Shown: one piece after another, positions 1 to 12,439 of the stretch | How the letters are laid out: the number at the start of each line of letters is the position of its first letter | Numbering within the stretch: the stretch's first letter is position 1 | IMG/VR virus record: IMGVR_UViG_2671181050_000002 | DNA: 12,542 nt | Reading direction: 5' to 3' (one strand) | Source of the DNA: a virus | Taxonomy: Duplodnaviria > Heunggongvirae > Uroviricota > Caudoviricetes | The notes under the pieces: model-generated | What the model saw: the letters and a program-made list of their open reading frames with translations, nothing else | Told to the model about the DNA's origin: nothing | Database searches by the model: none | Translations under genes and position numbers: made by a program

Positions 1-101
1 AGGCGGAATATATGCGTCACCTTCACCAATAAATTCATTAGTTCCGGCCAGCAGATTATAAATTTTTATGGTCCGTGCTTGTTCACTCATTCTGAATGCC
101 A
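1..101 (-). CDS. tfa: Tail fibre assembly protein Tfa, 5' end only (gene continues beyond window start)
   Basis: Minus-strand translation from ATG at 101-99 gives [34 protein letters not shown], matching the lambda Tfa N-terminus as recalled; the ATG overlaps the upstream stop (TAATG). Confidence 0.8.
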
Positions 102-2198
102 TTATGCAAGCCTCACAATATAGTTAAATGCGATGTTTTTGACGGTGTTTTCCGCGTTACCCGCAGCGTTAACGGTGATGGTGTGTCCATGTGAGCCAAT
201 CGCAACGGAGTGCGTATGAGCACCAATACCGACAGTATGTGCATGTGCGCCTGCGCTTGCAGCAGTGCCGGACAGCGAGTGGGTATGAGCACCATCTGAT
301 GATGTCTTCCCTGCATTACGAGTCTGGCCACTACCGCTTGTTGTGCTCATAATCCCCGCGCTTGGATTTGAAATCGCGGTATAACCATTAGGGAAAATGC
401 TCGTGTTCGTGCCACCAAATGCACCGGAACTCTTGTGTTGGTGCGCGCCGGCACTATTTGCGGTCCCGCTAATACTATGGGTATGCGCCCCGGTGTTATT
501 CGTGGATTTGGTTCCGTAATCAAACGACGATGTGGTTTTCGTCCCCAAATCCGTACTGGATGCGCTGGCGCTGTGGGTGTGCGATTTAATGCCGTCCTGT
601 TCCTGAGACAATACGGCGCGACCACTGGCAGGTTTGCCCTTAATCGTCCAGCCACGCATATCAGGGATCACGCCTGACGGATAAGCGGCTGCAAGTTTCG
701 GGTATGCAGATTTGTCAAAAGTCTGCCCCTGCATCAGGGCATAACCAGACGGAACGGTATCTGATGGCCACGGGATTGGTGCGCCGACTGGGTAGCTTTC
801 TGGTGGAAGATTTTTCGAGGTATAAACTTCTGCCCAGTCTTCCTCAAAACCATAGCCATCTCTTGAGGAACGGTAGAACAGACCTCCATTTCTGTAATGT
901 GCCTTCACCCCCTTCACCACCTTCGGCGTGTCCCAGCGCGCCAGCACCTGATATTCCCCGCTGTCTGCGGTGACTTCGGCAGTCAGGTGCTGCACCGCTG
1001 GCGGCGTGACATCATTCACCGTGCCGCTCTGGTCGCCGTCAAAGTGCGCCCCGTTATCCACGATGGCTTCTTTTTCCGGTACATGCTGCACGGCAGTGAT
1101 GGCATACGTGCCGTCATCGTTCTCACGGATACTCACACAGCGGAACAGGCGCTGACGCAACGTCGGCAACTTCAGCCCCCACACACTGTATTCTGCAACG
1201 CCGTCAGGAACCCGGTTCACTTTCACCTTAAGTCCGTCGGTGACGGACTGAACCTCCACGCTGACCGGACTCCCCTGCCCGTCAACCAGGCTTATCAGCG
1301 TGGTGCCGGAAGATGGCAGCGTGATTTCACGGTCGAGCGTCAGCGTCCGGGTCTGGCTGTTCACCGCCAGCACGCGACCACCGGTGCTGATACCGGCATA
1401 GTCATCATCGCAGATTTCAATGACATCGCCCGGTACATGGCGAAGCCCTTCAGCACCCACGCTGAAATCCACGGTCTGCGTCTCCAGCAGTTCCGTTTTA
1501 ATCAGCCACAGCCCGGCGCGGTGTGCCTGCCCCCGGCTGGTACAGCCAAAGGCATCCATCTTCGTGACATTACGACCGTAACGGGCAATGGCCTGCGTAT
1601 CTTCAACAAGCTCTGTCGCCGTCTCCCAGCCGTTGTTCGGGTCAATCCAGTTCACCTCAACGGCATTATGGCGGTCCTTCAGGGCGCTGAAGCTGTAGCG
1701 GAACGGCGCGCCATCATCCGGCATCACCACATTACTGCGGTTATAGGTCCACACCTTATCTGATGGTCGGTCCTGCACGAACGTCAGCGTCTGCCCGTTC
1801 CATACCGGCATACAGCGCATCGCCGAGCAGAAATCACTGAGCACATCCCACGCCTTACGCTGTGTGGTCAGCCAGGCATTACAGGTGATGCGCGGCTCCG
1901 TGCCGCCAAAACCATTCGGTACCAACTGGTCGCAGTACTGGCCGATGACATACAGCGTCCATTTATCCACATCTGCTGCACCAAGACGTTTCCCCATGCC
2001 GTAGCGCGGATGGGTCAGCATATCCCACAGACACCAGGCCATGTTGTTGCTGTATGCTGGCTTAAACGTTCCATCCCAGATACCGCTGTATTGCCGCGTC
2101 TGCGGGTTATAGTTCGACGGCACCTGCAGAATGCGCCCGCGCAGATGATAATTACGGCTCACCTGCTGGCTGCCGAACTGCTCCGAGTCCACCTGCAC
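102..2198 (-). pseudogene. Chimeric tail-fibre remnant: central part of host-specificity protein J (ORF aa 1-431) fused in frame to the C-terminal ~265 aa of side tail fibre Stf (GAHTHS His-box repeats, ends [11 protein letters not shown])
   Basis: 698-aa ORF from the six-frame track. Its N-terminal part ([41 protein letters not shown] ... [12 protein letters not shown]) matches the middle of lambda J as recalled; after residue ~431 it switches to Stf-like C-terminal sequence. The first codon is GTG in the middle of J sequence with no ribosome-binding site, and the upstream A fragment is in another frame. Confidence 0.7.
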
Positions 2199-3088
2199 GC
2201 CGACCAGTGCCGTGTTCGGGTATCCCCTTTCGTCTTCATCCAGTCTTTGACAATCTGCACCCAGGTGGTGAACGGGCTGTACGCCGTCCAGATGTGAAAG
2301 GTCACACTGTCCGGCGGCTCAATCTCTTCACCGGATGACGAAAACCAGAGAATGCCATCACGGGTCCAGATCCCGGTCTTTTCGCAGATATAACGGGCAT
2401 CAGTAAAGTCCAGCTCCTGCTGGCGGATGACGCAGGCATTATGCTCGCAGAGATAAAACACGCTGGAGGGGTCATCCGGCGTCCATTTGAGGCCAAACGG
2501 CGTCTCTTTGTCGCCAAATTTAAGATACTGCTCCTCCCCGCAGTGCGGGCAGGCAACATGAAAACGCATAAAATGCGGGGATTCACTGGCTGCACGCTCA
2601 ATCTGGCAGGTGCCTCTCACTTTGGGCGTGGAGCCACGGATGGACTTTGGCCAGACCGAGCCTTCAATACGCTTGTCACCCAGGAACGTCGGAGAGCCTT
2701 CCTGTTCAATATCATCATCAAAAGCAGCAAGTTCATCATAACCCGCCACATCCACCGACTTTTCACGGTAGTTTTTTGCCGCTTTACCGCCCAGGCACCA
2801 GAAGCCACGCCCATTAGTGAAACGCTTCATGGTGAGCGTGTTATCCCGGTGCTTTTTGCCATACCACGGGGCCAGCGCCAGCAGCGACGGAATATCACGA
2901 ATAGTCGGCTCAACGTGGGTTTTCATAAAGTTCTCGGCATCACCATCCGTCGGCAACCAGATAAGGGTGTTGCGCTGCTTATGCTCTATGAAGTAGGCAT
3001 AAACACCCAGCAGCATTTTGGAATAACCAACACGGGCAGACTTCACCACATTCACCTCGCGGATGTAGTCACTGCCCATCGCATTCAT
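2159..3088 (-). pseudogene. A: Terminase large subunit (gpA) internal fragment, lacking the N-terminal ~65 aa and the entire C-terminal half
   Basis: Translation (…)[67 protein letters not shown] ... [15 protein letters not shown] matches lambda gpA as recalled, then 19 out-of-frame codons derived from J sequence before the stop at 2159. An internal ATG at 3088 is the only possible start. Confidence 0.8.
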
Positions 3089-3201
3089 GATGGCCCGCTG
3101 CCACCTCCGGAGACGCAAGGGAGTCCCTGAGACTGCCAGCGTTCAATCGTTCGCGGATCCACGTTGAAAATTTCGGCAAGTTTCTTTTTATTAACCTTCA
3201 T
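3085..3201 (-). pseudogene. Terminase small subunit (Nu1-like) N-terminal stub, 38 codons
   Basis: ATG at 3201 gives [38 protein letters not shown], resembling the Nu1 N-terminal HTH region (lambda MEVNKKQLADIFGASIRTIQNWQEQGMP...). The reading frame runs into gpA-derived sequence at about 3097-3100 and stops at 3085. Confidence 0.6.
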
Positions 3202-3225
3202 GAAACAGTCTCACAACAAACACAG

Positions 3226-3337
3226 GGTCCGACATGAAAGTGCCCGAAAATGACTTTTTTAGGCGTTTTCATGTCGGACCTTTTACGGATTCGATATTAG
3301 AAAAAACAAATAGTTATGTTCGAGAAGTACCGACATG
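3226..3337 (-). other. cosB-like region: three R-site-like repeats CATGTCGG(A/T)AC at 3226-3236, 3270-3280 (inverted) and 3327-3337
   Basis: The three 11-mers were read directly; they lie between the cosN-like site and the Nu1 start in the same R3/R2(inverted)/R1 arrangement as lambda cosB, but with a different repeat sequence. Confidence 0.55.
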
Positions 3338-3344
3338 ATTTTCC

Positions 3345-3420
3345 CCGGAAAATTTTCATAAATAGCGAAAACCCGCGCGCCTTCCGCCCCGTAACCTGTC
3401 GGATCGCCGGAAAGGACCCG
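3345..3420 (-). other. cosN/cosQ-like terminase nicking region
   Basis: Minus strand reads CCGACAGGTTACG GGGCGGAAGGCG CGCGGGTTTTCGCTATTTATGAAAATTTTCCGG. The flanks match the lambda cos sequence as recalled (…ACAGGTTACG GGGCGGCGACCT CGCGGGTTTTCGCTATTTATGAAAATTTTCCGG), but the central 6 nt of the 12-nt cohesive-end core (3378-3389) differ. Confidence 0.65.
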
Positions 3421-3588
3421 CAAAATGATAATAATTATCATCTACATGTCACAACGTGCATCTACGCCATCAAACCACGTCAAATAATCAATTATGACGC
3501 AGGTATCGTATTAATTGATCTGCATCAACTTAACGTAAAAACAACTTCAGACAATACAAATCAGCGACACTGAATACGGGGCAACCTC

Positions 3589-3822
3589 ATGTCAACGAAG
3601 AACAGAACCCGCAGAACAACAACCCGCAACATCCGCTTTCCTAACCAAATGATTGAACAAATTAACATCGCTCTTGAGCAAAAAGGGTCCGGGAATTTCT
3701 CAGCCTGGGTCATTGAAGCCTGCCGCCGGAGACTGTGCTCAGAAAAAAGAGTTTCGCCTGAAGCAAACAAAGAAAAGAGTGACATTACTGAATTGCTCAG
3801 AAAACAGGTTAGACCAGATTGA
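3589..3822 (+). CDS. Small basic protein (77 aa) with a ribbon-helix-helix-like N-terminal segment, possibly the DUF3950/YlcI-YnfO family
   Basis: ORF MSTKNRTRRTTTRNIRFPNQMIEQINIALEQKGSGNFSAWVIEACRRRL... has a beta-strand / helix / helix pattern typical of Arc/CopG-type RHH proteins. The corresponding DNA is conserved in the lambda right arm next to cos (recalled). Family name is from memory. Confidence 0.5.
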   Translation: MSTKNRTRRTTTRNIRFPNQMIEQINIALEQKGSGNFSAWVIEACRRRLCSEKRVSPEANKEKSDITELLRKQVRPD

Positions 3823-3879
3823 AGCAATTTAGATAATCGTGCAGACTACGCCCCCTCATATCACATGGAAGGTACTACA

Positions 3880-4290
3880 ATGGCTCAGGTTGCCATTTTT
3901 AAACAAATATTCGATAAAGTGCGAAATAATTTAAACTATCACTGGTTTTATTCTGAACTAAAACGTCACAATGTCTCACATTACATTTACTATTTAGCCA
4001 CAGAGAATATTCATCTTGTTCTTGAAAACGATAATACGGTTTTAATAAAAGGACAGGGTAAGGTTGTAAATGTAAGATTTTCAAAAAATAAATGCCTTAT
4101 AGAAGCCACCTTAAAAGGATTCAAATCAGGAGAGTTATCATTTTACGAATACAGGAAAAATCTTGCTACAGCAGGGGTTTTCAGATGGATTACAAATATC
4201 CACGAAAACAAAAGGTATTACTATACCTTTGATAATTCATTACTCTTTACTGAGAACATTCAGAACACTACACAAATATTTCCGCACTAA
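3880..4290 (+). CDS. AT-rich hypothetical protein (136 aa from MAQVAIF), conserved lambda right-arm ORF
   Basis: ORF intact; a recalled lambda right-arm ORF translates to a related protein (about 75 percent identity by eye) with the reading frame preserved, which suggests a real gene. Followed by hairpin GTCCGGTT-N13-AACCGGAC at 4301-4329. Confidence 0.5.
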
Positions 4291-4878
4291 ATCATAACGT
4301 CCGGTTTCTTCCGTGCCAGAACCGGACTCGCTGGCATGATGAAATATGTGTACCCGGTAACCCCGGTGTGCATCGTTTTTGATTATTCCCGCACACTCGC
4401 GCAGAAGGAGTTCCCCGTCGGGCTACGGTCTCTGTTAATACGGGAATACGGCGACGATACAGCGCATGATGTGTCAGGCTTGAATGCCTTTATCCTTTAA
4501 AAGGGATATCAGTTAAGTTATCCCGTGTAGGGTATAAGCCATTATCAAAGCCACTCTGTAGGGAATGGCTTTTGTGATGGCATCACTTACTCTTTACGCT
4601 GCTATCCCACTCATCCCGGAATTTTGATGGGTTATTGAAACCTTCTGCTGACATAACAACTCCTTCAATGTTTGGCTGAAATTAGGATGTCTTTCCATCA
4701 GTCCGCCACCACAAAGAATCTTTTTTGCCATAAGGCAGGAGGTTCATCTTTCAGTGGCTGCCGGTGTTATTTCCCCACTTACTGGCTTGGGTTGTTTCGT
4801 GGTACTGCCGTTAACTGGTGGCCCAGAATAAATTCCGGTTTCATTATCAAGCCCACCCGTAAATGGGCTTTGTAATGG

Positions 4879-5148
4879 CTACTTCACTTTTGCTTTTGCT
4901 TTTGCTTCCGCTCGCTTACGCCGGCGCTCTTCTTTCCTCTCGGCTTTTGCCATGTCCATGAATGCCTGCATGATCGAGTTCCGCATCATGTAGCTAACAA
5001 AGTGATGATTGACACAGCCGTTGAGGCGCAGCTGCTCGCCAAACTCATCCACCGAGGCCAATGCTTCCATCATGCCCTTCTCGCCTTTCATGAACTCTGA
5101 GAAGTCGCGCCCCGCTCTGGAGGCGCATTCAATGACACGATCACTCAT
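4879..5148 (-). CDS. Hypothetical protein (89 aa) with a Lys/Arg-rich C-terminal tail
   Basis: ORF MSDRVIECASRAGRDFSEF...KAERKEERRRKRAEAKAKAKVK; its ATG overlaps the stop of the upstream KilA-N ORF (ATGA), suggesting translational coupling. No homolog recognised. Confidence 0.4.
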   Translation of the reverse strand: MSDRVIECASRAGRDFSEFMKGEKGMMEALASVDEFGEQLRLNGCVNHHFVSYMMRNSIMQAFMDMAKAERKEERRRKRAEAKAKAKVK

Positions 5149-5641
5149 CCCGGAAGCCCGGGGATCGTAATCTGCAGCTGGTTAGCCAGGGAGTTAATCT
5201 CAGCGACCAACACTGGCTTCGTATAGCGCCATGCTGCCAGCCCTTGTCCGCAGAAGCTCGCCATGTCTTTCTTCTGGTCAAACTCATGACATTTCATGTT
5301 GAGCTGCGCACTTAAGCTGTTGCGATGCTGAAGTTCTCCGGTGAAGTAGTCATCGAGGACTTTATAGGCCGCGTACTTGAACCCGGGGTTTAACCAAGCC
5401 GCATAATCGTAAGCAACAAACTTCCCGCCATATGTTCCACCGTGTACACCGCGCTCAGTAAAAACCACAGATTCGTGGTTTTTCTCCAGCTCGGCTAAGA
5501 ACTCTTTGGTCTGCTTGTTTCGCAGGTAGTGGTAAGGCGATTCAGATTCACTTTTACCACTGGCTTTCCACATACAGTGAGGCAGATCATGCCATCTTCA
5601 CCGATACGAATTGGTTGATTGAAGAGGGTTAATGATTTCAT
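5145..5641 (-). pseudogene. KilA-N domain protein with an apparent -1 frameshift near 5571-5576; intact downstream ORF is 5145..5573 (142 aa)
   Basis: The 142-aa ORF contains KilA-N/APSES-like motifs (SPYHYLRNKQTKEFLAELEK ... GGTYGGKFVAYDYAAWLNPGF). The expected N-terminal strand MKSLTLFNQPIRIGEDGMICLT is encoded from ATG 5641 in a different frame and stops after 47 codons. Confidence 0.5.
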
Positions 5642-5756
5642 AGCGTGTACCTACTCTTTGAAATGAACCTTTGCCGCACAGGAAACCAGCCCACCGAGGC
5701 TCGCCAGCACTAACTGGTATCCTCAAAGGCCCATTCCAAAGGGGCAGGTTCGGTGT

Positions 5757-5810
5757 AAAAAACATGCGTTGCGGTACGCATTTATTGCAAAAAGCCCCGC
5801 ATCGCGAGGC
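5757..5810 (-). terminator. Two tandem intrinsic-terminator-like hairpins downstream of Rz
   Basis: Minus-strand hairpin 5794-5810 (GCCTCGC/GCGGGGC with a G-U pair) followed by TTTTTG, and hairpin 5764-5781 (ATGCGT-N6-ACGCAT) followed by GTTTTTT. Confidence 0.5.
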
Positions 5811-5842
5811 TCATTAAATGGACTTTGTGATTTGCAAAAAAA

Positions 5843-6301
5843 TTATTTCAGGCATTGCGTCCTGATGTATTCCTGCAGGTAGTTAACCTGCGCGGTTATC
5901 TTGTCGATTCCACTTCGGAGACGGTAATAATTGAGTTCAGCATCTGCTGTAAGTCCTGGGCTTTCTCCATCGCCCATGCCGCTGGCTCCGGTCGTTGACT
6001 TTGCACAGGTGGCGGCGACTTGCAGGCGCTTACGCCCAGCAGAAACATCAGCACGGAGACTTTCGATAGTCGCGTTAGCATCAGCAAGCTCCTTTGTGTA
6101 TCTTGCGTCGAGTTCTGCTACATCACGTTGACGCTTCCGCATGTCAGCGATGGTGGCGTTCGCCTTCTCCAGTTCTCTGGCATTTTTGTCGCGCTGGGCT
6201 TTGTAGGTAATGGCGTTATCACGGTAATGATTAACAGCCCATGACAGGCAGACGATGATGCAGATAACCAGAGCGGAGATAATCGCGGTTACTCTGTTCA
6301 T
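5843..6301 (-). CDS. rzpD: Spanin inner-membrane subunit Rz
   Basis: [45 protein letters not shown]... has an N-terminal TM helix and coiled-coil region typical of Rz. The ATG at 6301 overlaps the endolysin stop (ATGA). Confidence 0.8.
5896..6087 (-). CDS. rzoD: Spanin outer-membrane lipoprotein Rz1, nested in the +1 frame of Rz
   Basis: ORF wholly inside Rz in another frame; signal peptide ending in a lipobox-like LLGVSAC followed by a Pro-rich mature part ([16 protein letters not shown]...). Exact start (M1 or M3) uncertain. Confidence 0.65.
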
Positions 6302-6795
6302 TGCTGACCCCACAAACAGATTTCACGCTCAATCTCACGACGAGTCATGAGACCTTTCCATTGCTTACCGCCAGCATATGTCCAGCGACGTAGCTGATCA
6401 CATGCGCCTTTGATATCGCCCTGGTTTATTTTGCGAAGAAGTGTCGATGTTCTGAAATTGCCAGCGCCCACGTTGTAAACGAACGAGTAAAGAGCGCCGC
6501 GCGTTGTTTCCGGTATATCAACTTTTATGTACGGGTTAATTTGTCTGGCGACCGTGGCAAGGTCTTTATTCAGGAGGGCTTTGCATTCTGCTTTGGTATA
6601 CGTTTTACCGAGCATGATGTCTTTTCCTGTATGCCCGTGACATACAGTCCATACACCAACAATATCTTTGTATGGTATGTAGCTGACACCTTCCAGACCA
6701 TCGTTACCACTTGGGCCAGTGATTAACACTGATGCTATAGCAATTGCTCCGCCACCAATAGCAGCAGCAACGGCTTTTCGTAATGATGGAGGCAT
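6298..6795 (-). CDS. rrrD: SAR endolysin (lysozyme R, phage 21 type)
   Basis: 165 aa, N-terminal Gly/Ala-rich signal-anchor-release segment ([20 protein letters not shown]) followed by a T4-lysozyme-like catalytic region; matches the R21/RrrD sequence as recalled. Confidence 0.85.
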
Positions 6796-7010
6796 TATTC
6801 ACCTCTCGCAGCCTTGCGCTTATCTTCTTTAATCTTGAAATAAAGGTTTGTCAGGTACGTCAGCAGGCCAAATACCAGGCTACCCAGCACACCTATTGCT
6901 GCCCACTGTGAGGGCGTGACTTTATCGAGCAGCTGTAAAAACCAGTACCCGGCACTACCTGCTGAGGTGCCATAGGCGACACCCGTTGTTAACTTATCCA
7001 TGGATTTCAT
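6795..7010 (-). CDS. essD: Pinholin S (phage 21 type) with dual-start motif MKSM
   Basis: 71 aa, [71 protein letters not shown], two TM helices; stop overlaps the endolysin start by 1 nt (TGATG); GAGGTG upstream of the start. Confidence 0.85.
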
Positions 7011-7119
7011 AACCCCACCTCGCAGACAAAGCGGGTGTAAATTGAGGGAATACTACGAAACGTAACAGACTCGGAGTCAGTGAATAACTCAGGTATTGGG
7101 TTATCAGCTAATATCGAGA

Positions 7120-7155
7120 CTCAAAAAATGGAAAAACCCGCTCGACGGCGGGTTT
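7120..7155 (-). terminator. Intrinsic terminator upstream of the lysis cassette (tR'-like position)
   Basis: Hairpin AAACCCGC-N6-GCGGGTTT (7134-7155) followed on the minus strand by TTCCATTTTTTGAG. Confidence 0.5.
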
Positions 7156-7583
7156 AAGCTGTGTGACGAAGTAACCACTCTTAACAGCATAACCAATTTT
7201 TTACGTACGTAAACCACTAAATGATATTTGCGAGAATGCTACCGAGTATTGAAAACACCACTACAAATACATAAGCAAATCTCAACAAATAACCAACAAA
7301 TAATTTCCAGCGTTATTTTTAGTCAATTTAAATTGAACCTTCAAATTATAGAGCACTTATAAATAACAGCCATTAATATAAATTGGCTAATAGATTTATT
7401 TTTATTCAGTCAAGAGCCATGAATAGGATTCGATAGAAAAAAGTTCAGATAAAAATAGAGATCTACTTCACAAATCAAACGAGAAACCAAAACTTACATC
7501 TTGAAATATTCACATTGATTAGATGAATATTTATCGCGCAGTGACATCATTTTTTAATAATAGTTCAAAAAAAAGGGCTCACG

Positions 7584-8666
7584 ATGAAAAAATTAACAGT
7601 GGCAATTTCTGCTGTAGCTGCATCAGTACTGATGGCGATGTCTGCTCAGGCAGCTGAAATTTATAATAAAGACAGTAACAAGCTGGATCTGTACGGGAAA
7701 GTTAATGCTAAGCACTACTTCTCCTCTAATGATGCAGATGATGGTGATACTACTTATGCCCGTCTTGGCTTCAAAGGTGAAACCCAAATCAACGATCAAC
7801 TGACTGGTTTCGGTCAGTGGGAATATGAATTCAAAGGCAACCGCGCTGAATCTCAAGGTTCCTCCAAAGATAAAACCCGTCTTGCCTTCGCTGGCCTGAA
7901 ATTCGGTGACTACGGCTCCATCGATTACGGCCGTAACTACGGTGTAGCATACGACATCGGTGCATGGACCGACGTTCTGCCAGAATTCGGTGGCGATACC
8001 TGGACCCAAACAGATGTATTCATGACTGGTCGCACCACAGGTGTTGCAACTTATCGTAACAACGACTTCTTTGGTCTGGTTGATGGCCTGAACTTTGCAG
8101 CTCAGTATCAGGGCAAAAATGACCGAAATGAAGTAACTGAAGCTAATGGCGATGGTTTCGGTTTCTCAACTACTTATGAGTATGAAGGATTCGGCGTGGG
8201 TGCAACCTATGCTAAATCTGATCGCACTAATAATCAGGTTATCTACGGTAACAACGGTCTGAATGCTTCTGGTCAAAATGCTGAAGTATGGGCAGCTGGT
8301 CTGAAATATGATGCGAACAACATCTATCTGGCCACCACCTATTCTGAAACCCAGAACATGACTGTTTTTGGTAATAACCATATTGCCAACAAAGCACAAA
8401 ACTTCGAAGCTGTTGCACAATATCAGTTCGACTTCGGCCTGCGTCCATCCGTTGCTTACCTGCATTCTAAAGGAAAAGACTTGGGTGTTTGGGGTGATCA
8501 GGACCTGGTTGAATATGTTGATGTAGGTGCAACCTATTACTTCAACAAAAATATGTCCACTTTTGTTGACTACAAAATCAACCTGATTGATAAGAGCGAT
8601 TTCACGAAAGCATCTGGCGTTGCTACCGATGATATCGTTGCTGTAGGTATGGTTTACCAGTTCTAA
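7584..8666 (+). CDS. nmpC: Outer-membrane porin, NmpC/OmpD-like (OmpC/OmpF/PhoE family), apparently intact
   Basis: 360 aa; signal peptide [23 protein letters not shown] then AEIYNKD...; C-terminal VGMVYQF typical of general porins; closely matches DLP12 NmpC as recalled. Confidence 0.85.
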
Positions 8667-8673
8667 TTTGATT

Positions 8674-8735
8674 ACTAAAAGATATGTTGTGGGAGGCTTT
8701 GCCTCCCCAACATATAAGTGGCTCCCTCAAGCCAC
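8674..8735. terminator. Hairpin cluster immediately downstream of nmpC: 15-bp stem at 8682-8715 and 6-bp stem at 8718-8735
   Basis: ATATGTTGTGGGAGGC-ttt-GCCTCCCCAACATAT (one bulged T); on the minus strand it is followed by CTTTTAG, on the plus strand the second hairpin is followed by TTCCTTT. Possibly bidirectional. Confidence 0.4.
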
Positions 8736-8784
8736 TTCCTTTAGAAGCACAACCTTGCTTCTAACTATATAAACCTTCTGTTAT

Positions 8785-8815
8785 ATATTACCCTTTATTT
8801 TTGGGGGCGTTTCAA
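8785..8815 (-). promoter_or_regulatory. Candidate late promoter (pR'-like) just downstream of Q: TTGAAA-19 nt-TAATAT
   Basis: Minus strand -35-like TTGAAA (plus 8810-8815) and -10-like TAATAT (plus 8785-8790), about 40 bp after the quuD stop; the hairpins at 8682-8735 would give a short terminated leader. Sequence-pattern inference only; the 19-nt spacer is suboptimal. Confidence 0.3.
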
Positions 8816-8830
8816 CGCCCCATTTTTAAT
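8804..8830 (+). terminator. Intrinsic terminator, plus strand (likely nmpC terminator)
   Basis: GGGGCG-tttcaa-CGCCCC followed by ATTTTTAAT. Confidence 0.5.
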
Positions 8831-8854
8831 AACTTTTAGTAAATAATTGGCGTA

Positions 8855-9238
8855 TTAATTAGAGTTATTAACAACGATATCCATCTCTAACCGGATATCT
8901 AATGCCATTAACATCCCTTCAATTATGCCCTCAGCCTTTTGTAACCTTTTCCCGATATAACCATCAGAGCAGCAATGCTTACCTGCCAGTGACATGAATG
9001 TCATACCGACTATATAATAATCTACTAATAAATCGTGCAAATCGCTGTTGTTCTTTTTCAGACGGGCCATGCACCCGCAAATGATCATCGCGTCATCGTC
9101 ACAACATTGCGGGCGAGATTTTACTTTTGAAGGAATTAATCCCTTAAAACCGGCGGCAATGGACGACCAGGTCACATCTTCATGATTATTAGCCGCCCAC
9201 GCTCCCCAACGCTCAAGAACCATCTGAATATCACGCAT
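8855..9238 (-). CDS. quuD: Late-gene antiterminator Q (phage 82 type)
   Basis: 127 aa from [60 protein letters not shown]...; GGAG 8 nt upstream of this ATG; matches DLP12 QuuD as recalled. The longer ORF-track start (9253) lacks an RBS. Confidence 0.8.
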
Positions 9239-9323
9239 CAACTTACTCCACAAAAATCAGACCAAAACGCCAATTACAAGCAAAAATCAACAAAACAGTA
9301 TTAGTTGATTGTTATCTCTGACT

Positions 9324-9464
9324 TCATACTCCTGCTCCTGTCAGTGTTTTGGCGTAATTCTTCAGTATTCGGTAATCGGTCAAAACAGAACCGGGGAAAC
9401 GATATAAGCGCAGACGCCCCCAGCGGTGGCGAAGAAGTTCTGCCATATTAAACTCAAACATCAT
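9324..9464 (-). CDS. ylcG: Small protein YlcG-like (46 aa)
   Basis: Translated by hand: [46 protein letters not shown]; ATG overlaps the rusA stop (ATGA). Below the ORF-track size cutoff. Confidence 0.55.
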
Positions 9465-9823
9465 TCATTCCCCATTTCGGTGATGGTCAGTTCCAGCCTC
9501 CCACCTTTGGTAACAGGCATCTTCACAACGCGGTAATCAACGACCTGAGCATCATCCAGCCAGAAACCTGCTTTAGTGAGTGCGTCAAAAGCGGCTTTTT
9601 GCAGATTATCCAGGTCACGGCGACGGCGATCCGGCATGTGGCACTCAATGCGGATTTTCACAGGCATAGCCAGGCCGATATCCAGCATTGCGTTTTTAAT
9701 GATTCGGGCGACGTTATCACGGTATGCCTGCCCTTCTGCGCTGATGTGCGTGCGCCCGCGATTATGCCGGTAGTAGCGGTTATTGCTCGGAGGCCAGGGT
9801 AATGTGATGCTGTAGGTATTCAC
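9461..9823 (-). CDS. rusA: Holliday-junction resolvase RusA
   Basis: 120 aa [120 protein letters not shown]; GTG start overlaps the upstream stop (GTGA). Confidence 0.85.
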
Positions 9824-9948
9824 GCCTTAATAACCCCCTCTTTCAGCCAGATAACCTGTGTTCTCGCCATACCTTCCAGCGCGCATTCTTTTGCATATGC
9901 AGCATCGACTTGCTTGGCATGCCCTTTACCGGCAATCTTCTGTATGCG
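9820..9948 (-). pseudogene. ybcO: ybcO-like 3' remnant (C-terminal ~41 codons, no start codon)
   Basis: The frame coupled to the rusA start reads ...[33 protein letters not shown], resembling the C-terminus of DLP12 YbcO as recalled; upstream in this frame are stops at 9949-9951 and 9955-9957 and no ATG. The 9949-10029 segment has no convincing coding frame. Confidence 0.4.
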
Positions 9949-10029
9949 CTAAACCTAGATAGAATCCACTCTGTGCACATTGAAGCCCGCTCTATGCTTC
10001 CTTTCAGGTATTGAAGGGATTGAGATGGG

Positions 10030-10377
10030 CTAAGCATTATTGGCCTCCTGCATCAGGAGAAAGACAATCATGGCGGCGCGGAGAGGTCTGGTATCAAATA
10101 TTGGGCTTACGCCTTTTGCATCCACACACCATTCAGTTAACTGGTCTAAGATAGAAATCCTGTATTTCTCAATAATCGGCCATGAAGCGCTCGGATCATT
10201 GCAGTAGTCAGGCAAATGATTTAATGGCTCAAAAGTTGTATCAGCATTTCCGTAATACCATTTGTTGGTGTTATTCCCTGATGTTTCCGGTTTACTTGCC
10301 CAAAGGCCTTTAAAAATTATGTCTCCTACCATTCTGTTAATTTCAAAATCACTTAACTGTGAATAATCCATTGTCAT
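10030..10377 (-). CDS. Hypothetical nin-region protein (115 aa from [20 protein letters not shown]...)
   Basis: ORF-track entry 10030..10413; the ATG at 10377 overlaps the ninE stop (ATGA), so it is the likely start. I could not place it in a family with confidence (possibly DUF2591/NinX-like, from memory). Confidence 0.5.
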
Positions 10378-10550
10378 TTCCTCGCACGATATCTTAGCCA
10401 CCGGATATCCCACAGGTGAGCTGTGTAATTGAAGGTTTTTACGTCAGATTCTTTTGGGATTGGCTTGCGTTTATTTCTGGAGCGTTTCGTTGGAAGGTAT
10501 TTGCAGTTTTCGCAGATGATGTCGGTGAAACTTCGTCGCTGTCGCCTCAT
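10374..10550 (-). CDS. ninE: NinE protein (58 aa)
   Basis: [58 protein letters not shown], matching lambda/DLP12 NinE as recalled; ATG overlaps the methyltransferase stop (ATGA). Confidence 0.75.
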
Positions 10551-11074
10551 GCCGCCCTCCTGACGCCCTGCCCGATCGCCATCAATGCCGCTTTGGATAC
10601 GGTAGTAAACATCCGTCGAGGACTGATGAACGGTCGCCAAATCAGCAGCATGGAGCCTTTGCTGTTTCCCTTCTTCTCCAGCCCTGTCGATGGTTCGATA
10701 AAATTAATCCGTCCATCAGTGATAATGCGAACTTCGTCGACACTCTCCAGAGCCTTGCTGAACCATCCGACTGACATATCCTCTGGCACAAGCATAACTA
10801 CCGTCTGTCGCTGTTGTATGCACTGCTCAGCGGCTTTTTCCACCCACGGCCTGATATTGCTGTACGGTGGGTTATTCCAGATTGCACCGTGGCTTACCCA
10901 CTCAGAATTGAGCGCGTCGTCGGCCTCAGTTAGCCAGTGAGCACACAGAGCATTTTTGTCGCTCGCTGCCGAATCCAGCCAGAATCCAAACTCAATATCC
11001 AGTGCATCAAAAAGCCAAAGCGGCGTTTGCCAGCAGTCCTTGTCGTGTGCTGGCGTATTTGATTTGATAGTCAT
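10547..11074 (-). CDS. Phage-type orphan DNA N6-adenine methyltransferase (Dam family), 175 aa
   Basis: From [31 protein letters not shown]...; catalytic NPPY motif ([14 protein letters not shown]); ATG overlaps the ninB stop (ATGA). No adjacent restriction endonuclease gene. Confidence 0.75.
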
Positions 11075-11511
11075 GCAGCCCGATCTCCCCATCTCGCTTT
11101 CCACTCCAGAGCCAGTCTCGCTTCGTCTGACCACTTAACGCCACGCTCTGTACCGAATGCCTGTATAAGCTCTAATAGCTCCGCAAATTCGCCTACACGC
11201 ATCCTGCTGGTTGACTGGCCTATTACCACAAAGCCATTCCCGGCAAGGTTAGGAACAACATCCTGCTGCTTTAATGCTGCGGTAAACACACACTTCCAGC
11301 TTTCTGCATCCAGCCAGCGACCATGCCATTCAACCTGACGAGAGACGTCACCTAAGCAGGCCCATAGCTTCCTGTTTTGGTCTAAGCTGCGGTTGCGTTC
11401 CTGAATGGTTACTACGATTGGTTTGGTTGGGTCTGGAAGGATTTGCTGTACTGCGTGAATAGCGTTTTGCTGATGTGCTGGAGATCGAATTTCAAAGGTT
11501 AGTTTTTTCAT
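11071..11511 (-). CDS. ninB: Recombination protein NinB (Orf family)
   Basis: 146 aa from MKKLTFEIRSPAHQQNAIHAVQQILPDPTKPIVVTIQERNRSLDQNRKLWACLGDVSRQVEWHGRWLDAESWKCVF..., matching lambda NinB as recalled; GGGAGAGGGAAG upstream of the ATG at 11511. Confidence 0.85.
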   Translation of the reverse strand: MKKLTFEIRSPAHQQNAIHAVQQILPDPTKPIVVTIQERNRSLDQNRKLWACLGDVSRQVEWHGRWLDAESWKCVFTAALKQQDVVPNLAGNGFVVIGQSTSRMRVGEFAELLELIQAFGTERGVKWSDEARLALEWKARWGDRAA

Positions 11512-11526
11512 GACTTCCCTCTCCCC

Positions 11527-11559
11527 CAAATAAAAAGGCCTGCGATTACCAGCAGGCCT
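11527..11559 (-). terminator. tR2-like intrinsic terminator upstream of ninB
   Basis: Hairpin AGGCCTGC-N8-GCAGGCCT (11536-11559) followed on the minus strand by TTTTATTTGG; it occupies the position of lambda tR2 (between ren and ninB). Confidence 0.45.
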
Positions 11560-11653: not shown

Positions 11654-12439
11654 ATGAGTACAGCACTCGCAACGCTGGCAGGGAAGCTGGCTGAACGTGT
11701 CGGCATGGATTCTGTCGACCCACAGGAACTGATCACCACTCTTCGCCAGACGGCATTTAAAGGCGATGCCAGCGATGCGCAGTTCATCGCATTGTTGATC
11801 GTCGCCAACCAGTACGGCCTTAATCCGTGGACGAAAGAAATTTACGCCTTCCCTGACAAGCAGAACGGCATCGTTCCGGTGGTGGGCGTTGATGGCTGGT
11901 CCCGTATCATCAATGAAAACCAGCAGTTTGATGGCATGGACTTTGAGCAGGACAATGAATCCTGCACATGCCGGATTTACCGCAAGGACCGTAATCATCC
12001 GATCTGCGTTACCGAGTGGATGGATGAATGCCGCCGCGAACCATTCAAAACCCGCGAAGGCAGAGAAATCACGGGGCCGTGGCAGTCGCATCCCAAACGG
12101 ATGTTACGTCATAAAGCCATGATTCAGTGTGCCCGTCTGGCCTTCGGATTTGCTGGTATCTATGACAAGGATGAAGCCGAGCGCATTGTCGAAAATACTG
12201 CATACACTGCAGAACGTCAGCCAGAACGCGACATCACTCCGGTTAACGATGAAACCATGCAGGAGATTAACACTCTGCTGATCGCCCTGGATAAAACATG
12301 GGATGACGACTTATTGCCGCTCTGTTCCCAGATATTTCGCCGCGACATTCGCGCATCGTCAGAACTGACACAGGCCGAAGCAGTGAAAGCTCTTGGATTC
12401 CTGAAACAGAAAGCCACTGAGCAGAAGGTGGCAGCATGA
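11654..12439 (+). CDS. bet: Single-strand annealing protein Bet (Red beta)
   Basis: 261 aa [84 protein letters not shown]..., essentially the lambda Bet sequence as recalled. Confidence 0.9.

Follow-up and report, generated by a model that had tools for sequence, protein, structure and literature searches.

Where phage lambda carries bor, the lambda-like sequence analysed here has an apparent KilA-N gene spread over two reading frames and directly followed by a small ORF, which raises the question of whether the broken frame is a real mutation, an error in the sequence or a functional arrangement, and of what the two genes are. A sequence-only reading of the window (i.e., the whole stretch of DNA that was analysed, 12,542 nt) had placed the N-terminal strand of the KilA-N domain and the rest of the domain in different frames, and had offered a pseudogene, a sequencing error or an N-terminally truncated product as explanations. 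That observation is confirmed and its interpretation is supported by the analysis that follows, and the three options proved to be the right ones to weigh.

Translation of the minus strand agreed with the two frames and with all of the coordinates proposed for them. From the ATG at 5641, the sequence encodes MKSLTLFNQPIRIGEDGMICLT and then runs on in the wrong frame until a stop at 5495, giving a product of 48 aa, and the ORF at 5573-5145 (142 aa) begins MWKASGKSESE. The sole gap in a five-way DNA alignment of the window with ECP1, HK620, Stx2-1717, and PhiR49_1 was one missing A between window positions 5575 and 5574 (minus strand, codon 23), where CTGATATG has become CTGTATG, so that the loss of 1 nt suspected near 5571-5576 was borne out by alignment to four intact homologues. 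The deleted base lies between a G and a T, outside any homopolymer and outside any Dam or Dcm motif. With this base restored, the peptide reads ICLTDMWKASGKS and contains the core LTDMWKASGKS, as the expected LT-D/V-x-WKASGKS had anticipated. Intact relatives carry a single 165-aa protein (498 nt) here, including HK620 hkbK, ECP1, Stx2-1717, and hundreds of E. coli prophages; PhiR49_1 likewise has one 498-nt gene annotated as a "KilA-N domain-containing protein" and then a 258-270-nt hypothetical gene. Megablast matched 234 phage-genome records, and the resemblance is one of homology rather than chance: the best E. coli match to the 1.2-kb region that holds the cassette, strain MLI110, has 99.9% identity and differs by the missing base alone. 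The interval 5641-5145 is one KilA-N/ORF11CD3 gene split by a 1-nt deletion, and its two ORFs are best annotated as one frameshifted KilA-N/ORF11CD3 pseudogene (Table 1).

Table 1. Coordinates of the features discussed, in window positions
Feature	Position	Strand	Remarks and evidence
Internal gpJ fragment/tail-fibre C-terminus, in-frame chimera	102-2198	-	
Large terminase internal fragment (gpA ATPase)	2159-3118	-	
Nu1 37-codon stump, then cos-like sequence	about 3100-3202		
DUF3950 and DUF1398 genes	3589-4290	+	
Portable module shared with P22-like HK620	4686-5646	-	blastn of window against locus L002
KilA-N/hkbL-like cassette	4879-5641	-	
hkbL-like 89-aa gene	4879-5148	-	Start overlaps upstream TGA as ATGA; phrog_875
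(GCAAAA)3 hexanucleotide repeat	4886-4903	-	Encodes (AK)n tail; copy number differs among relatives
3' part of KilA-N/ORF11CD3 gene	5145-5573	-	From internal Met24; rest of KilA-N plus ORF11CD3 helical hairpin; Pfam
Single-base deletion site	5574-5575	-	Codon 23, lost A; alignment to intact homologues and six sister contigs
5' fragment of KilA-N/ORF11CD3 gene	5495-5641	-	22 native codons (MKSLTLFNQPIRIGEDGMICLT), 26 out-of-frame codons, stop; translation and alignment
Rz-to-KilA-N spacer	5688-5865	-	Three terminator-like hairpins; no sigma-70-like promoter on minus strand
Rz spanin gene	5843-6313	-	Last lysis gene upstream of cassette; Pfam Phage_lysis, 136.6 bits
Rz, R, S, porin gene, Q, ylcG, rusA, ninX, ninE, dam, ninB	5843-11529		
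Direct junction of ren to end of gam	11580		Removes O, P, cII, cro, cI, N
bet	11654-12439	+	

The identity proposed for the broken gene held, and a second domain that the sequence-only reading had left unnamed was added to it. In Pfam searches, the restored 165-aa protein matched KilA-N (PF04383) at 57.6 bits (cut-off 23.8, residues 9-101) and, at its C-terminus, ORF11CD3 (PF10549) at 50.5 bits (cut-off 25, residues 109-161). Taken alone, the 142-aa ORF keeps ORF11CD3 complete (50.9 bits, full profile 1-54) and matches KilA-N at 38.1 bits over profile positions 23-106 only, and the 48-aa ORF alone is too short to be scored against Pfam. A KilA-N profile check of the upstream frame, set beforehand, found the signal present: as the KilA-N match of the 142-aa ORF starts at profile position 23, the upstream frame contributes about 19 bits. 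Thus, the window copy has no complete KilA-N domain in a single frame, the break falling at codon 23, and residues 1-23 are kept even in homologues with as little as 53% identity. In the AF2 structure predicted for an intact homologue (pLDDT 85), two strands (2-6 and 9-13) and the first part of helix 21-28 precede the break, and helices 86-130 and 132-156 form a long hairpin. Foldseek with the KilA-N AF2 model gave weak matches only (Mbp1 DNA-binding domain, E = 0.68; DdrC, E = 0.17), a PDB sequence search with the KilA-N protein returned nothing meaningful, and NCBIfam held no family for this protein or for its 89-aa neighbour.

By its domain matches, the upstream protein is a member of the Bro network, with a putatively DNA-binding KilA-N head and a predicted helical hairpin (ORF11CD3) at the C-terminus. 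Two papers (PMC10111431, PMC8096241, citing Iyer, Koonin and Aravind 2002) describe this network as a set of shuffled phage domains, i.e., KilA-N, Bro-N, Rha, ANT, ORF11CD3, P63C, and T5orf172. The likeness of the window protein to its members is one of two-domain layout, in which a KilA-N DNA-binding head is joined to an exchangeable C-terminal module, and the network rests on domain shuffling rather than on a known function; our literature search turned up no study that addresses the function of hkbK/hkbL or ORF11CD3 proteins.

The second ORF of the cassette had been described as coupled to the first by an ATGA overlap, which is seen in the sequence, and as having no recognised homolog, which did not stand, as HK620 hkbL, HK97 gp61, and phrog_875 are all homologues. 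The 89-aa protein matched phrog_875 at E = 3.7e-54 over the whole profile (1-85 of 85), contains the invariant motifs GRDFS.F..GEK and GC.N, and ends in a Lys/Arg-rich tail with the C-terminus KAERKEERRRKRAEAKAKAKVK; by this profile match it belongs with HK620 hkbL and HK97 gp61 in phrog_875, and "hkbL / HK97 gp61-like" is the label that we suggest for the ORF. The family is small (of 1.84 billion representatives, 21 match at E <= 1e-3), and its named members are all from Enterobacterales (prophages); no Pfam family matched the 89-aa protein. Its AF2 model (pLDDT 91.9) consists of three helices (3-20, 26-42, and 48-88), the last of which holds the basic tail, and a fold search of the model against PDB and BFVD returned generic helical bundles alone (E > 0.1). 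The tail repeat is variable, with a 12-nt indel in the alignment to HK620 and Stx2-1717, and partner lengths of 85, 87, 89, and 93 aa occur inside one 90% cluster. A zinc site at C8/C45/H48/H49 was considered as well and dropped as a conserved feature, C8, C45, and H48 each being replaced in distant homologues.

Piecewise homology and Pfam were used to map the window, and by this map it is a gutted lambda-like prophage remnant and not a live phage: it lacks every head gene, most of the genes for the tail, and also O, P, cII, cro, cI, and N. Four deletion junctions could be placed, i.e., tail-fibre/J chimera, J/terminase, Nu1'/'A, and ren'/'gam (near 905-907, 2211-2222, ~3100, and 11580, respectively). 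The 26-mer across the ren'/'gam junction had no match in GTDB representatives, and a 201-nt query across it had none among complete RefSeq E. coli genomes. An intact 360-aa OmpC/OmpD/NmpC-like porin gene (7584-8666, plus strand) lies between Q and the holin gene on the opposite strand; such a porin is typical of the lysogenic-conversion genes of DLP12-like prophages. The same gutted prophage was recovered in at least 24 public contigs by way of the terminase-fragment ORF, and its neighbours in sister contigs are an AraC-family gene, IS fragments, ybhB, bioA, bioB, and bioF; the ybhB-bioA-bioB-bioF flank marks the bio side of the region in which lambda classically integrates.

Six of these sister contigs were compared with the window (three ENA metagenome scaffolds, GCA_016856385.1, GCA_008041115.1, and one JGI contig), of which five align over its entire length and the sixth (L030) over 1-10537, where that contig ends. 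Relative to the window, these contigs show 6-28 substitutions (identity 99.77-99.93%) and a single indel, which is the base at 5574/5575, and all six carry the intact 165-aa gene together with its 89-aa partner. Besides the deletion, the only change private to the window copy across the six comparisons is at position 9345, inside ylcG or close to its 3' end, where the window has T and all six sisters have G; with at least one private substitution, the window copy represents a slightly diverged lineage. A low-quality, indel-rich assembly was ruled out by the rate of one indel per 12.5 kb against the six sisters, and no other frame-breaking indel was found over 6.5 kb in comparison with strain OkiPb01701. 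Beyond the sisters, a 31-mer across the deletion had zero exact matches in GTDB species representatives, IMG/VR, and JGI metagenome contigs, and when a 71-nt stretch was searched by megablast in 5,426 complete E. coli genomes, each of the 389 genomes with that stretch (389/389) differed from the window by exactly this gap.

The same gene is broken in other ways elsewhere. Contigs were fetched with the exact 142-aa ORF, a retrieval that biases the sample toward knock-outs, and 10 of 10 had lesions other than the deletion in the window. The 48-aa ORF, unlike the 142-aa one, had no entry in the collection that was searched. These include a CAA to TAA change at codon 9 (Q9 stop; five contigs, L015-L019), a TGC to TGA change at codon 20 (C20 stop; two contigs, L013/L014), a -1 frameshift in a T5 run (one contig, L021), and a 1.25-kb insertion of the IS3 family at codon 21 (one contig, L012 5741-6992), in which an Rfam scan found nothing. 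Such independent early lesions in other isolates indicate that the KilA-N gene is dispensable in prophages.

We consider it most likely, at a probability of roughly 60%, that a real, recent, and neutral pseudogenising deletion of 1 nt, private to the lineage of this strain, arose in a decaying prophage and left the cassette silenced. This reading is preferred because the remnant is without replication, immunity, head, and most tail genes, and nothing in such a remnant would maintain the accessory genes of a late operon. It is also possible, as the second most likely explanation, that the source genome has an intact 165-aa gene and that one A was dropped from the consensus during sequencing or assembly, and the uniqueness of the deletion is also exactly what such an error predicts, given that it is unique against 389 complete E. 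coli genomes, GTDB representatives, IMG/VR, and JGI metagenome contigs, is absent from six near-identical sister contigs, and is the sole difference from MLI110 over 1.2 kb. An error would nevertheless have struck only once, with no second indel over 12.5 kb against the six sisters despite many homopolymer runs, where errors concentrate, and it would have struck between a G and a T, away from any homopolymer or Dam/Dcm motif, in a gene whose genuine lesions are common elsewhere and in a remnant that is decaying. The single indel and the position of the deleted base outside a homopolymer support a real mutation, and we infer a biological change, not an error of base calling.

Two further explanations would give the broken frames a function. 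That a functional, N-terminally truncated protein of 142 aa is made from Met24 (e.g., as a dominant-negative or partner-binding form) seems improbable to us, even though an ATG follows the break directly, ORF11CD3 is still complete, and an identical 142-aa ORF has been left behind in other isolates by at least five lesions of independent origin. This recurrence follows from retrieval by that exact ORF, no Shine-Dalgarno-like purine run occurs within the 12 nt upstream of the ATG at 5573, and termination-reinitiation at this ATG is unlikely because the upstream ORF stops 78 nt downstream of it. Moreover, Met24 is not a conserved internal start, as it is Ile in many homologues, and, judged from the structural model, the product would be short of two or three strands of the KilA-N sheet. 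Programmed ribosomal frameshifting or transcriptional slippage that restores the full-length protein has nothing more in its favour than the existence of two overlapping frames, and its probability is very low because neither a slippery heptamer nor a homopolymer occurs at the site (CTC ACT GTA TGT) and the relatives examined are all single-frame; with the two-frame layout conserved nowhere and the junction absent from all collections searched (GTDB representatives, IMG/VR, E. coli genomes, and JGI metagenomes), this explanation is effectively refuted. Whether a single private lesion or a base-call error, the change has little biological weight, as it affects a widespread prophage gene in a prophage that is already dead, and its practical value lies in annotation.

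If the deletion is real, as we prefer, its effect on expression can be outlined from the layout of the locus. Five terminator-like sites were found in the region as against 1.6 +/- 1.4 in shuffled sequences, three of them on the minus strand, and a crude consensus scan found no sigma-70-like site on the minus strand from Rz to the ATG. The terminator scan had missed one more hairpin, GC-rich and with a T-run, near 5788-5812. The stop of the cassette is followed by a hairpin without a T-run, and in mEp235 a rho-independent terminator is annotated at the position that corresponds to the spacer. Given the terminator-like hairpins, the lack of a promoter, the HK620 homology that starts 5 nt upstream of the ATG, and the mEp235 terminator, we infer that the module in live phages would be transcribed within the Q-antiterminated late transcript. 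The remnant keeps Q and the late region, and the immunity and replication genes that drive the lytic cycle are gone. Translation from the native start would make 48 residues, 22 of them native, and the remaining frame of 142 codons would have no recognisable ribosome-binding site and would miss the first KilA-N beta-strands. Because it relies on the ATGA stop/start overlap, the partner gene probably also loses most of its translation, and silencing of the cassette, with both genes losing expression, is the most likely outcome suggested by this layout.

In contrast to the lesion itself, the cassette is a very common one: by homology, it appears as a two-gene accessory module of enterobacterial temperate phages that has already been annotated, and it is common to P22-like, HK97-like, lambda-like, and Stx phages. 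The sequence-only reading had called it an accessory insertion, which holds in so far as the pair is a portable accessory module and does not in so far as it is nothing unusual, with about 2,065 of the 5,426 complete E. coli genomes matching its 1.2-kb stretch at least partly and 355 matching over at least 80%.

The company kept by the hkbL-like gene is more constant than its neighbourhood. We inspected the loci of the window, HK620, ECP1, Stx2-1717, PhiR49_1, HK97, mEp235, Klebsiella RAH1, three Klebsiella contigs, and Rouxiella, and in every inspected locus where the upstream gene is annotated or called, the hkbL-like gene lies 0-2 nt after a Bro-network gene (HK022, where the upstream gene has no annotation, is left out of this count). 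KilA-N+ORF11CD3 proteins are partnered after Rz in the window, HK620, ECP1, and the Stx phages, and within the tail module in Klebsiella phage RAH1; KilA-N+P63C proteins are partnered after Rz in HK97 and mEp235, and within the tail module in Klebsiella prophages. A pRha+ANT protein is partnered in Rouxiella, beside an Arc/antirepressor (immI-like) cluster and a tailspike, and the hkbL-like gene of HK022 occupies the same post-Rz slot, upstream of which only a weak KilA-like tblastn match was found. In two distant representatives (P0238 and P0239), the hkbL-like region is fused to a T5orf172/MUG113 domain, which is nuclease-like. Among the inspected loci, hkbL-like coordinates are 4001-4267 in L007, 4001-4252 in L008, 1801-2058 in L025, 1801-2055 in L026, and 1801-2034 in L027. 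On one Klebsiella-type contig (L011, 3244-3998), the KilA-N+P63C gene is also broken, into pieces of 69 aa (KilA-N) and 163 aa (P63C), and the partner is intact.

Since the hkbL-like gene directly follows Bro-network genes whatever their domain make-up or neighbourhood, we tentatively propose, as a doubtful reading, that its product is a dedicated and previously undescribed partner module of the Bro network, that the pair might act as effector and modulator or antidote, and that the knock-outs might come from selection against a host-toxic protein. If the pair does act in this way, repeated early KilA-N knock-outs, the deletion in the window among them, could mean selection against host toxicity and not neutral decay. 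Our working model, held with low confidence, is that the cassette may encode a DNA-binding regulator of Bro type with a stoichiometric small partner. The constant pairing is only a mildly new point, and it offers a modest lead for work on Bro, KilA, and antirepressor proteins, as the module exists in the tractable phages HK97, HK022, and HK620.

The closest known counterparts of the cassette are hkbK and hkbL of HK620 (NP_112071 and NP_112072), which share with it the gene pair, its order, the ATGA overlap, and the position after Rz; by blastn, the homology begins 5 nt upstream of the ATG and stops about 190 nt beyond the hkbL-like stop. Equivalent pairs with the same layout occur in ECP1, PhiR49_1, the Stx2-converting phages 1717, 2851, and WGPS, and in Ss-VASD. 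In these HK620-type pairs, the KilA protein is 96-100% identical to the restored frame of the window and the hkbL-like protein 99-100% identical, and they differ from the window copy in being without the 1-nt deletion at codon 23 and, for HK620, in having one GCAAAA unit in the tail repeat where the window has three; their annotations read "unknown" or "hypothetical". More distant are HK97 gp60/gp61, HK022, and mEp235 gp59/gp60, where a KilA-N protein, a 2-nt spacer, and an hkbL-like small protein again follow Rz, but the upstream protein (242-263 aa) has a P63C domain at the C-terminus where the window has ORF11CD3, and its KilA-N domain is only ~23% identical to that of the window.

Phage defence systems offer looser comparisons. 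BstA, a prophage protein of abortive infection, is a loose analogue only, differing in its size (~307 aa), its own C-terminal domain, and its embedded anti-BstA DNA element (PMC8585504), and the BstA model in PADLOC matched neither cassette protein. Among the systems catalogued in PADLOC, the KilA protein had only a partial match of 31 residues to the candidate system PDC-S22 (E = 1.2e-8), and the match of the partner to QatB was non-significant (E = 0.017).

Finally, the comparison with lambda bor, with which the sequence-only reading had begun, is accurate as to position, the pair lying between Rz and the cos/terminase end, so that it shares the genomic slot of bor between Rz and cos. In lambda, bor comes directly after Rz on the opposite strand, whereas the cassette of the window is on the strand of the lysis genes. 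No ORF tested between 3283 and 5641 had a Bor-family match in Pfam, and the lysogenic-conversion moron bor has no sequence relationship to the cassette, for which no promoter of its own was detected. Overall, the cassette is a standard mosaic alternative in the bor slot and not a peculiar insertion.
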